Part shown: in pieces, positions 60,832 through 64,000 of the stretch | Layout of the letters: each line of letters begins with the position of its first letter | Position numbering within the stretch: the first letter of the stretch is position 1 | From: Shimia sp. | Lineage (GTDB): Bacteria > Pseudomonadota > Alphaproteobacteria > Rhodobacterales > Rhodobacteraceae | Reading direction: 5' to 3' | Assembly: GCF_049116215.1 (NCBI RefSeq) | Contig: NZ_JAGDZB010000001.1 | Location: 459,678 to 523,677, forward strand | DNA: 64,000 nucleotides | Translations under genes and position numbers: made by a program | Notes under the pieces: model-generated | Told to the model about the DNA's origin: nothing | Database searches by the model: none | What the model saw: only the letters and a program-made list of their open reading frames with translations

Positions 60832-62151
60832 TTAAGCGGCGGATTTGCGCGGTCGGTTGCGCCGACGACGCCCGCCACTGGGTTTGCCTCCGGCATTTCC
60901 TCCCGGCTTGCCACCGGGCTTCCCGCCAGGCTTGCCACCGGCGTTTGCTCCACCGCGGCCACGGGATTTCTGACCCTGACCAGCAGCAGCGCGCGCGTCC
61001 CGCGCATATTGCTTACTGGACTCGGCAGGTTCCCATTCAGGCCGATCAAACTTCCGGCCAATCAGCTTCTCAATGTCTTTCAGGTAGTCGCGCTCATCCG
61101 AGGCACAGAAAGAGATGGCTTGGCCATCCCGCCCGGCCCGCGCGGTGCGGCCAATCCGGTGCACATAGCTTTCCGCAACATTGGGCAGGTCAAAGTTGAT
61201 CACCAGCGAGATCGCCGGAATATCAATGCCCCGCGCCGCCACATCCGTAGCCACCAAAATGGTCACGTCTCCATCGCGAAAGGCCTTGATCGCCCGATCG
61301 CGCTGACCCTGGCTTTTGTTGCCGTGGATCGAAGCCGCATTGAAGCCCTCGGCCACCAGCTGCTTCATCATGCGCTCCGCACCGTGTTTGGTGCGCGAGA
61401 AGATCAGCGTGCTCTTATCTTTGTTTTCATTCAGAATTTCACGCAATCGAACGCGCTTCTCGCCCTTTTCGTGATATTCCACCGACTGGGTGATCTTATC
61501 CGCGGTCTTACCGGGAGGGGCACATTCCACGCGCTTCGGATCCGTCAGATAGCTCTGGCTCAACTCGTTCATCTGTTTAGGCATCGTGGCCGAAAACAGC
61601 ATGGTTTGACGCGGTGTGCCCAAGTGCGGCGCAATTTTGCGCAAGGAGTGAATGAAGCCCATGTCCAGCATCTGGTCAGCCTCATCCAGCACCAGATAGC
61701 CCACGGTCGACAGATCAATCTCTTTGCGATCCAACAGGTCGATCAACCGGCCCGGCGTGGCCACCAGAATGTCACAGCCGCGCTTCAGCATGCCAATCTG
61801 GCGGTTGATGGATTGTCCACCGACCACGGTCATGACCTTCATCGGCGTGCCCTGCACCATCGGGCGCAGGTTGTCAGCGATCTGATTGACCAACTCACGG
61901 GTTGGCGCAAGCACCAGCGCTTTGACAGATTTGGGCAAAGGGCGACCCGGCGTCGCCAAAAGCCGATCCATCATTGGCAGCCCAAAGGCCAGCGATTTAC
62001 CGGTGCCGGTCTGGGCCAGCCCCATAATGTCATGGCCCTTCAAGGCCAAAGGAATGGCTTTCTCCTGAATCGGAGTTGGCTTGTCAAAGCCGGCCTTGTC
62101 CAAGCCCTTTAGCAGTGTGGACGACAGGCCCAGCTGTTCGAATGTTGACAC
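60832..62151 (-). CDS. rhlE: DEAD-box RNA helicase (RhlE-like)
   Basis: PTPIQ, AQTGTGKS, PTREL, LDEAD, SAT, HRIGRTAR; GTG start with AAAGGA RBS; Gly/Lys/Arg-rich tail. Confidence 0.9.
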   Translation of the reverse strand: MSTFEQLGLSSTLLKGLDKAGFDKPTPIQEKAIPLALKGHDIMGLAQTGTGKSLAFGLPMMDRLLATPGRPLPKSVKALVLAPTRELVNQIADNLRPMVQGTPMKVMTVVGGQSINRQIGMLKRGCDILVATPGRLIDLLDRKEIDLSTVGYLVLDEADQMLDMGFIHSLRKIAPHLGTPRQTMLFSATMPKQMNELSQSYLTDPKRVECAPPGKTADKITQSVEYHEKGEKRVRLREILNENKDKSTLIFSRTKHGAERMMKQLVAEGFNAASIHGNKSQGQRDRAIKAFRDGDVTILVATDVAARGIDIPAISLVINFDLPNVAESYVHRIGRTARAGRDGQAISFCASDERDYLKDIEKLIGRKFDRPEWEPAESSKQYARDARAAAGQGQKSRGRGGANAGGKPGGKPGGKPGGNAGGKPSGGRRRRNRPRKSAA

Positions 62152-62507
62152 AAAATGTCCTTTCACGCCACGCACGCCCTCGGCGCCACGCAGCAAAACG
62201 TCATCGGCCCCGTTTGGGGCCGCAATCGGGTTCGGCAGCACCGCCACGGCGCAAATCATTTTGCGCACGCCCAGCCTGTCCGTTGGAACCCTGCGTGATG
62301 GGAACGAGAGGTGTCGCTGATGCGTCCGTCAGGTCTCTTAGGATAAGACAAACCCCGGCGCGGCATGCTCACGCGGCTGCGCAACGACCCGCTCCACATA
62401 TAGCGCCCGCTGCCAAAGTCAACCTTCATAGCAAAAAGGACCGATGCAATTGCACCGGTCCTGATTTCATTTCTTACTAGATTTTGCGGCTGTCCCGCCC
62501 TGCGAGA

Positions 62508-63845
62508 TCAAGCTCTGCCTTTCCAGGGCACCAGATATTTCTCGGCCCAGCGCATCAACATATCGATGCCAAAGCCGATGATCCCGATGAGGATAATGCC
62601 CATCAAAACGATGTCGGTGTCCTGAAACTTAGATGCGGCCACAATCATCTTACCCACACCTTTTTCCGCCGCGACAAGCTCTGCGGCCACAACCGTGCCC
62701 CAACAGACCCCCATCGCAACCCGCGCTGCGGTGAAAATTTCCGGCAATGAGTTCGGAATGATCACATGACGCAGGATCTGCTTTTTGCTTGCCCCCAAAG
62801 AATAGGCTGCGTGCACTTTGGTGATGTTCACCCCGGACACACCAGAGCGTGCGCCAATCGCCATGATCCACAGTGCAGCAAGGAACAGCAGGATGATTTT
62901 ACCCTGTTCGCCAATCCCGGCCCAAATGATCACCAACGGAATCAACGCCAACGGTGGCACCGGGCGCATGAATTCCACAATTGGATCAAACCAACCACGG
63001 AACCAATTGGACAGCCCCATGGCATACCCCAGCGGAATACCAACCGCCGCACCCAACGCAAAACCGACAATCACGCGGAACAAGGAATAGCTCAGGTGCT
63101 CTGCCAATGTGACGTTCTGATATCCCTCCTGGCTCACCGAAATCAGGCGTTTCCAAACACTTTCCGGTGCGGGCAGCCAGATGTTCTCCATCTGCCAGCC
63201 TTTGGAAGGTTCAAAGTTCAGCGTGCCTTTGTCGGTCAAAGCCACACGGCCAAAGCCAACTTCGACATCGGTATCCCGATCAATCGGTTGCCCGTCCACA
63301 GCAATGACCTTGGCACCGCCCTTACGGGTCACCTCATCATTGGCATCCCAGCGCAGCAGTTTTGACCGGTAAGCTTGCACCACAAGGGCATCATCTTTGG
63401 CAAGCCCGTCATTCTCCGCAACAACAGGCGCCTCAGGTTTTTCGCCTGCTGTGTGCACCAGAACATTGACCGTCGCATCCGCCTTTTGGCCGTCTTCGGC
63501 TTCCAAAGTGTAGGTGAAGCTTGCTTCCCCGACAAAAGGCCCAGGTGCGTGCAGGAATTTGGGCAACAACGATGATCCGGTAAAGGCGCCCCAAATCACA
63601 AAGATCAGCACAATGGATATCACCGAGGCCGCCTTGTTGGAGATAACCGCGCTTTCATCCCCAAATGTCACTGTTTTCAGCGACGTGTAATCCTGCGCCG
63701 CCGTAAGGCGATGCTTGACCTGCGTATAGAGGAAAGAGGCCAAAAGTATCAGCCCCACGTAAAGGGCCACATACGGCAGCGCGCCCACCACGGAGATCAA
63801 AAGCGTTATCAGCTCACCACCAAGATCAGCAAAAATCTGTCCCAT
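62508..63845 (-). CDS. tauC: Taurine/sulfonate-type ABC permease (TauC-like) with a large periplasmic insertion
   Basis: WLPAPESV, RPVPPLALIPL, EAA-like AAYSLGAS.KQILRHV..P, AELVAA. Confidence 0.85.
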   Translation of the reverse strand: MGQIFADLGGELITLLISVVGALPYVALYVGLILLASFLYTQVKHRLTAAQDYTSLKTVTFGDESAVISNKAASVISIVLIFVIWGAFTGSSLLPKFLHAPGPFVGEASFTYTLEAEDGQKADATVNVLVHTAGEKPEAPVVAENDGLAKDDALVVQAYRSKLLRWDANDEVTRKGGAKVIAVDGQPIDRDTDVEVGFGRVALTDKGTLNFEPSKGWQMENIWLPAPESVWKRLISVSQEGYQNVTLAEHLSYSLFRVIVGFALGAAVGIPLGYAMGLSNWFRGWFDPIVEFMRPVPPLALIPLVIIWAGIGEQGKIILLFLAALWIMAIGARSGVSGVNITKVHAAYSLGASKKQILRHVIIPNSLPEIFTAARVAMGVCWGTVVAAELVAAEKGVGKMIVAASKFQDTDIVLMGIILIGIIGFGIDMLMRWAEKYLVPWKGRA

Positions 63846-63846
63846 C

Positions 63847-64000
63847 TTATGCGCTCTCCTCAGTGCGGCCCATGATCTCTTCTTCCATGTTCCAAATCAT
63901 GTTGAGGATCTCTTCGCGGGTTGGCGCATAGTCGGGGTGTTTCTTCACCTCCCGCAAATCCGCACCCACGCCCATATCTGCAAACGGCAATCGGTATTCT
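63847..64000 (-). CDS. tauB: ABC transporter ATP-binding protein (TauB-like), C-terminal end
   Basis: Frame reads EYRLPFADMGVGADLREVKKHPDYAPTREEILNMIWNMEEEIMGRTEESA*; directly upstream of the permease. Confidence 0.7.
   Translation of the reverse strand, partial: EYRLPFADMGVGADLREVKKHPDYAPTREEILNMIWNMEEEIMGRTEESA

Follow-up and report, generated by a model that had tools for sequence, protein, structure and literature searches.

The locus examined here raises the question of why a transporter permease should carry, in the middle of its chain, what reads as two halves of an adhesin repeat in swapped order. The window, that is, the whole stretch of DNA analysed (64,000 nucleotides of a Shimia sp. 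genome), contains at 62508-63845 a tauC gene whose 445-residue product (P0001) is a long-form ATP-binding cassette (ABC) permease of the NitT/TauT family; all features of tauC are on the minus strand. Taurine is a major currency of carbon, nitrogen and sulfur between plankton and roseobacters. An earlier, sequence-only reading of the window had placed an insert of the permease at 63192-63545 (residues 101-218), between the transmembrane helix that ends in IWGAFTG and the WLPAP motif, and the strings that it quoted are present there. Our analysis showed that the insert is real, ancient and conserved and that it corresponds to one period of an adhesin array, taken out of register. It is very probably a circularly permuted Big_9/cadherin-like immunoglobulin (Ig) beta-sandwich that entered the first periplasmic loop of TauC in a single capture.

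An out-of-register adhesin repeat inside TauC

The segment between the first core transmembrane helix (TM1) and WLPAP is a true insert, because the TauC profile model begins to align only at residue 221 and because short TauCs of the same bacterial family (L077 and L078) have only a few residues between TM1 and the sequence (F/I)(L/I)PSP. The sequence-only reading had noted such a short loop in canonical TauC and SsuC. The model concerned, NCBIfam NF007545, was the best-scoring one (222 bits, under its cut-off of 342) and covered residues 221-444 only, at profile positions 49-273 of 275; on sequence, the product is a divergent TauC subfamily and not an equivalog of the E. coli type. The limits of the insert proper, residues 102-216 (63198-63542), were taken from a variant without the Ig domain in another genome (G012), which reads HAP-VD-WQM at this place. 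A wrong start or a frameshift artefact was ruled out, as a single open reading frame encodes the protein and is conserved over its full length in over 100 genomes.

The insert belongs to the Big_9/cadherin-like repeat family. When the insert was searched in isolation, Pfam Big_9 (PF17963) matched residues 104-128 at profile positions 64-88 of 89 (E 6.8e-5, 24.1 bits against a cut-off of 23.6). Within the whole TauC protein the Big_9 score was 19.1 bits, under the cut-off, with no collinear full-length match. The NCBIfam tandem-95 repeat model matched the insert at profile positions 58-94 of 98, and some database entries already flag a partial Big_9. A profile built from 80 insert sequences (alignment A1) and searched against 1.84 billion representative proteins detected 8,760 proteins at E≤0.001. 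The top matches were almost all repeat proteins of 1,100-7,600 residues (one had 835) with up to 57 matched stretches each, and Pfam labels the matched stretches of the giant proteins Big_9, Cadherin_5 and Cadherin_4. The check suggested by the sequence-only reading, comparison of each half with Big_9/cadherin-like repeats, gave the same picture; each half alone matched giant repeat proteins, the first with 1,765 domain hits and the second with 78 (a few of the latter from two TauC fragments in the searched set, P0194 and P0197), and reversed decoys of the halves gave 0 hits. A chance motif match is ruled out by the 8,760-protein profile result together with the half-only matches and their empty decoys.

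The register of the insert relative to the adhesin arrays was evident from the giant proteins themselves. Rerun locally on the repeat proteins, the insert profile found 2,517 stretches, most of which corresponded to insert positions 5-45, the F-G hairpin motif. The full insert, positions 7-118, was matched by 151 stretches in 12 giant proteins. Full matches in P0177 ran back to back (1704-1807, 1811-1914, 1917-2020, and 2023-2126, each equivalent to insert positions 7 or 8 to 117 or 118), so the insert is exactly one array period. Pfam delimits a canonical Big_9 domain of P0177 at 1841-1942, and the insert register is about 30 residues out of phase with it. The insert is thus collinear with an array period that runs across a domain junction, which agrees with the proposal of the sequence-only reading that it had been cut across a repeat junction of a giant adhesin.

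A canonical-register hidden Markov model (HMM) of 89 positions, seeded with Pfam-delimited repeats of the genome's own adhesins and of three giants and rebuilt from 400 full-length domains, was used to determine the order of the segments. It matched the native insert twice and in swapped order, with model positions 63-88 on insert positions 7-32 and model positions 25-64 on insert positions 72-121. The re-ordered insert gave a single match (positions 26-88, 36.4 bits), confirming the swapped halves claimed earlier, and when the insert was doubled the match crossed the C-to-N junction uninterrupted. All sequence segments of the Big_9 domain are present in the insert, in permuted order, and the spacing from A-x-D-D to N-D is 17 both in the insert and in the canonical consensus. 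The adhesin row of the best HMM alignment has a 10-residue gap in the linker, which makes the TauC linker about 10 residues longer.

The insert is therefore one out-of-register period of an adhesin array, which starts in the E-F loop, continues through strands F and G and a lengthened linker and closes with the A-E strands of the "next" repeat. The C-terminal hairpin of the canonical repeat, Big_9 positions 64-88, corresponds to strands F and G (residues 104-131; 63453-63536). They are followed by a variable linker rich in Pro, Glu and Gly (residues 132-150; 63396-63452), the part that exceeds the adhesin inter-repeat linker. Strands A-E (residues 151-215; 63201-63395) comprise the N-terminal two thirds of the canonical repeat and contain the second of the two canonical HMM matches.

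Predicted fold and history of the domain

AlphaFold2 (AF2) modelling of the insert alone with alignment A1 gave a compact, single, all-beta domain with a predicted local distance difference test score (pLDDT) of 89.6 and a predicted template modelling score (pTM) of 0.81. The model has seven main strands (model residues 10-19, 25-35, 56-61, 66-68, 83-87, 103-107, and 113-117), of which the first two correspond to TauC residues 106-115 and 121-131, and the linker is without regular structure. The AF2 model of full-length TauC has the same secondary structure (pLDDT 69.8), and models of homologues in the AlphaFold database and the ESM Atlas match the insert model at template modelling (TM) scores of 0.90-0.92. 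The prediction that the insert closes into one domain is thus a highly confident one. The structure prediction called for by the sequence-only reading gave what that reading had anticipated, a predicted beta-sandwich, and the insert does not align collinearly with a known transporter domain.

Model residues 22-120 (strand G, the linker and strands A-E) aligned with Big_9 proteins over 70-71 residues at a root-mean-square deviation (rmsd) of 2.5-2.7 Å and a TM score of 0.49. The TM scores to Big_9 proteins ranged from 0.42 to 0.52, values that come from sequential aligners, which cannot cover a permutant. Sequential Foldseek alignment over the whole insert gave an rmsd of 20-27 Å for cadherin-like and tandem-95 matches, which is expected if the F-G hairpin folds back on strands A-E instead of joining the neighbouring bead. 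A Foldseek search of the insert model against the PDB gave no match at E≤0.001, the sequential aligners yielding nothing clear, and the insert profile made only weak matches to PDB sequences (E of at least 0.014).

The topology of Ig domains suggests how such a fold would be accommodated in the loop. With its ends at opposite poles, a normal Ig domain could not be fitted there. Opening at the E-F loop would bring both chain ends to one pole, beside TM1 and the WLPAP helix, and the linker of about 20 residues would run the length of the sandwich. An arrangement with both ends at one pole would therefore suit insertion into a loop but would need a linker as long as the sandwich, which the observed extension matches. 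The loops that carry D152, W166-D167, N169-D170, R174, and T204-D205-K206-G207 would face away from the membrane.

Several charged and amide residues of the insert are conserved. D152, D167, N169, D170 and D205 are invariant or nearly so, as are R160, K162, R174 (99% conserved) and K206. The acidic loop that follows strand B in canonical repeats, ND-S-D-P-D-G-D (ND-x-D-x-D-G-D), reads ND-E-V-T-R-K-(D/G)-G in the insert. Calcium binding, which the sequence-only reading had thought possible, is doubtful in its canonical form given this replacement; the retention of the five acidic and amide positions leaves room for a possible, remodelled metal site.

Sampling of 250 genera in the family showed the long form of TauC, defined as a match from residue 57 or earlier to the end, in about 120 and short forms only, at about 50% identity, in about a dozen. 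Outside the family, 4 of about 330 sampled alphaproteobacterial genomes have the long form; named genera that carry it are Ahrensia, Stappia, Inquilinus and Kiloniella. At 90% identity, proteins with the long form make up more than 2,000 clusters, and Ig-bearing TauCs are widespread in marine Roseobacteraceae/Paracoccaceae. An accessory permease domain is thus carried by about half of the genera sampled in the family, and kinetic or structural work on "TauC" modelled on the E. coli protein would overlook one quarter of the long-form protein.

A maximum-likelihood tree of the permease core placed the short forms outermost, then the TauCs of genomes G037 and G156, then that of G012 and then all 52 Ig-bearing sequences (support 94/97). 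Ig-bearing TauCs form one clade, and its sister is the G012 protein (L074; G012:C82:7500-10200), which lacks the Ig domain. The G012 TauC has a 74% identical core, the extra N-terminal helix (TM0), the KTVTFGDES motif and the motifs that flank the insert, and it passes cleanly from one flank to the other (...IHAP-VD-WQMRPIWLPAP) in place of the domain. Its position is consistent with a state that preceded the insertion or with an early, precise loss, between which a single taxon cannot decide. This gene provides a ready template for a deletion allele of the domain.

The ratio of nonsynonymous to synonymous substitution (dN/dS), calculated for pairs with unsaturated dS, was 0.10 for the insert and 0.009 for the core; the linker was the least constrained part of the insert (dN/dS 0.5). 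The domain is under purifying selection. A recent mobile insertion was ruled out by the single old clade and by the best per-domain scores to any adhesin, which reach only about 33 bits. The domain would have originated by one capture of a repeat-sized fragment of an adhesin gene, followed by extension of the linker. The Shimia genome (G000) itself encodes several canonical tandem Big_9 proteins (12 hits, best E 2.6e-14), located at about 323450-325470 of contig C7, 33890-35170 of C10, 991800-995550 of C1 and 442680-442980 of C3, and a donor-type gene is therefore present in the lineage.

Other TauC forms were detected among the relatives. The intermediate TauCs of G037 and G156 (L075 and L076) have KTV-K-FGD-x-SAV before TM1 and a loop of about 25 residues after it, with neither TM0 nor the Ig domain. 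A further TauC-like permease (L079; G125:C11:16000-18600), found also in G107 and G096, has a 48% identical core in open frames of about 650 residues. Its N-terminal extension of about 430 residues is unrelated to the Ig insert and rich in predicted helices and in Lys and Glu, and appears to be a second kind of accessory domain, likewise undescribed, on a permease of the NitT/TauT family.

Several points weigh against a permuted Ig domain captured once by TauC. The packing of F-G on A-E is deduced from pTM, pLDDT and the pattern of the fold searches, and not from inspected contacts or a permutation-aware alignment. A phmmer search of an adhesin repeat stretch against the PDB found no solved structure for the repeat family, so that the canonical domain limits rest on Pfam and on weak PDB hits, where the FTYT...ATV motif stands at the end of a chain or domain. 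From the G012 protein it is clear that TauCs of this clade can lack the domain. Lastly, no feature of the binding protein TauA tracks the domain; the TauA of G012 aligns collinearly with those of Ig-bearing systems, at 61% identity and with no notable indel. With these points taken into account, we still regard the permuted, singly captured Ig beta-sandwich as the reading that most probably holds.

The permease and its taurine locus

The insert lies in a protein with a second addition to the canonical TauC plan. TM0, the extra N-terminal helix (residues about 12-40; 63726-63812), is a 29-residue hydrophobic run that AF2 models as a helix at residues 2-47. Long-form relatives share it from about residue 22 onward, canonical TauC lacks it, and its topology is probably N-out. 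The KTVTFGDES motif (residues 57-65; 63651-63677), whose columns are invariant in alignment A4, would lie on the cytoplasmic side in the loop between TM0 and TM1; motifs of this type are found also in the Ig-less relatives G012, G037 and G156. TM1 (residues about 73-94; 63564-63629), a hydrophobic helix placed by AF2 at residues 71-89, ends in IWGAFTG, and the loop after it is probably periplasmic, judging from the positive-inside rule and homology to NrtB and CmpB. Canonical TauC homology resumes at the WLPAP motif (residues 223-227; 63165-63179), in which W223, L224, P225 and P227 are invariant. The permease core (residues 269-436; 62538-63041) matches Pfam BPD_transp_1 (PF00528) with an E of 9.9e-29, and its closest solved relatives are CmpB (9u9z) and NrtB (8w9m).

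The gene is the final one of a tauA-tauB-tauC operon, as shown by extending the window into its genome (L005). The window edge lies 155 bases upstream of tauC, whose ATG is 1 nucleotide past the tauB stop. The 3' end of tauB, which encodes the ATP-binding subunit, occupies 63847-64000 on the minus strand, with its last 50 codons at 63847-63999, and the remainder of tauB and tauA lie beyond the window edge. In the extended locus tauB is at L005:3525-4475 on the minus strand (PRK11248, E 1.3e-84) and tauA, encoding the binding protein, at L005:4486-5604 (TIGR01729, E 3.5e-42). Divergent from tauABC are genes for a class-III aminotransferase (tpa), a small acetyltransferase-like open reading frame, a MocR-type regulator and sulfoacetaldehyde acetyltransferase (xsc; 1,029 bits against a cut-off of 620). 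The order tauA-tauB-tauC could be confirmed for 43 of 54 related loci, and the locus is the roseobacter cluster for taurine uptake and dissimilation.

TauABC is an experimentally supported route of taurine uptake in Ruegeria pomeroyi, in which mutants of tauA and tauC (SPO0674 and SPO0676) lost about 92-93% of their growth on taurine (PMC10130141). The insert is present in two Ruegeria loci (L064 and L065) and, by a second homologue search, in many proteins of Ruegeria, Leisingera, Phaeobacter and Roseovarius. R. pomeroyi DSS-3 (SPO0676) was not named among the 120 matches listed in that search.

Two features of neighbouring genes were also recorded. TauB has 316 residues and the E. coli-type TauB model (255 positions) aligns from residue 69 only, which leaves an N-terminal extension of about 55 residues that might touch the invariant cytoplasmic KTVTFGDES loop of TauC. 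At 60832-62268 on the minus strand, the window encodes a DEAD-box RNA helicase of the RhlE/CshA-like type (E 1e-124) with a low-complexity basic tail in which GGKPGGKP-type repeats are followed by a run of Arg.

Possible roles and comparison with known systems

To our knowledge, the P2 domain of MalF is the sole well-studied precedent for an Ig-like domain in a periplasmic loop of an importer permease. In the E. coli transporter MalFGK2, this domain binds the binding protein MalE (PMC6906923). By analogy, the TauC domain may dock TauA, a suggestion that we make tentatively and place ahead of the other roles considered. Docking is the most economical idea, given where the domain sits, the two copies expected in a TauC2 dimer and the example of MalF P2. 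Both copies would flank the docking site and help to capture or hold the very acidic TauA (net charge of the mature protein -26), and the insert keeps basic residues (R160, K162, R174, and K206) that would suit such a partner. Complex prediction of mature TauA (A2) with the insert (A3) gave a score of 0.00, which, without controls, speaks neither for nor against binding.

Only slightly less likely, the permuted Ig fold would have no partner and would act as a structural buttress or spacer that stabilizes TM0, TM1 and the periplasmic face, possibly with calcium from seawater. The strongest conservation falls at the two ends, HAPGPF and KGWQMExIWLPAP, through which the domain is joined to the membrane part, and the domain arrived with, or just after, TM0; yet G012 keeps TM0 without the domain. 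The five conserved acidic and amide residues lie in motifs that line the repeat junction in adhesins and would favour a bound cation, but the substitution of VTRK for the acidic DxDxDG loop tells against it. The constraint on the domain, moreover, extends over its whole exposed surface and exceeds what a spacer would need.

There is little to commend a third role, in which the domain binds a small ligand or senses, either as a low-affinity taurine or sulfonate site that feeds TauA or the translocation path or as a receptor for another molecule of the periplasm or envelope. The basic cluster is conserved on an otherwise acidic domain of a sulfonate importer, and the repeat relatives include lectin-like, cadherin-type domains (RapA2-type matches in Foldseek), but this role has neither a pocket nor a ligand to its credit, and the specificity of such ABC importers normally resides in the binding protein. 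It is very improbable that the single-domain model fails, with strands F-G swapped onto A-E of the other TauC as a clamp across the dimer or with the insert partly unfolded and AF2 over-confident; a monomer prediction with uninspected contacts cannot show swapping and the full-length model is only moderate, but the pTM of the insert alone demands that all strands be placed confidently relative to one another, models from three independent predictors match at TM scores of at least 0.90, the linker extension is about the amount needed for an intramolecular return, and the two TM1 helices are far apart in type I importers.

A bolder version of the permuted-Ig reading, which we consider speculative and on balance improbable, is that an out-of-register adhesin piece became a stable permutant that serves the main roseobacter taurine importer as a dedicated TauA receptor or calcium-dependent gate, tuning uptake at the nanomolar concentrations of taurine in seawater. 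If so, the gene would record a natural and datable case of "permutation by tandem-repeat excision" that made a new ABC-importer module.

The closest relatives of the insert are the Big_9 (PF17963), Cadherin_5 (PF17892) and tandem-95 repeats of giant RTX-type and "retention module" adhesins, to which all seven strand segments are homologous. Repeats and insert share the G-x-x-S-F-T-Y-T...D-G...A-T-V-x-V hairpin, the DD-to-ND spacing of 17 and the G-T-L-x-F-x-P strand E. The insert differs in being a single copy and not a tandem array, in its strand order (F-G-linker-A-B-C-D-E, with the longer linker), in residing in a loop of an inner-membrane permease and not in a secreted fibre, and in having basic VTRK for acidic DxDxDG and the derived, invariant R160, K162 and R174. 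Canonical TauC, SsuC, NrtB and CmpB (NF007545; 9u9z and 8w9m) are homologous to the TauC core from WLPAP to the C-terminus and are likewise encoded in an operon with TauA and TauB, whereas they have about 275-290 residues, a loop of a few residues after TM1 and no TM0.

A "split" Ig domain in the RTX adhesin FrhA of Vibrio cholerae (PDB 9y9w, chain A) appears to be broken at the E-F loop, where the TauC domain opens. The match to the insert profile was weak (E 0.014) and is a lead only; insert positions 77-117 aligned with chain residues 16-57 (C-E-like) and insert positions 13-36 with chain residues 330-353 (F-G-like). FrhA has a foreign peptide-binding domain inside an Ig domain, whereas in TauC the opened Ig domain is itself inside a membrane protein.

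Ig-like domains on importer permeases, as in MalF, and circular permutation of beta-sandwiches are both known already. Their combination in the roseobacter taurine permease, whose first periplasmic loop took up a permuted adhesin repeat, probably in a single capture, was undescribed in the papers found, and the literature searched contained no description of the TauC insert. For protein evolution it is an unusually clean case, in which the source family, the E-F cut point, the linker extension and a domain-less sister gene are all visible, and it illustrates a way for tandem arrays to give rise to circular permutants suited to loops.

The TauC insert and MalF P2 have in common that each is an Ig-like domain within a periplasmic loop of the permease of a type I importer. 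No MalF chain was among the matches listed in the structure searches of the insert, an absence that does not exclude similarity. The settings differ: MalF P2 is found between TM3 and TM4 in a heterodimeric transporter, the TauC domain between TM1 and TM2 in a homodimeric permease of the NitT/TauT family. For transport, the TauC domain would thus provide a second, independent Ig-like periplasmic domain on a type I importer to set beside MalF P2.

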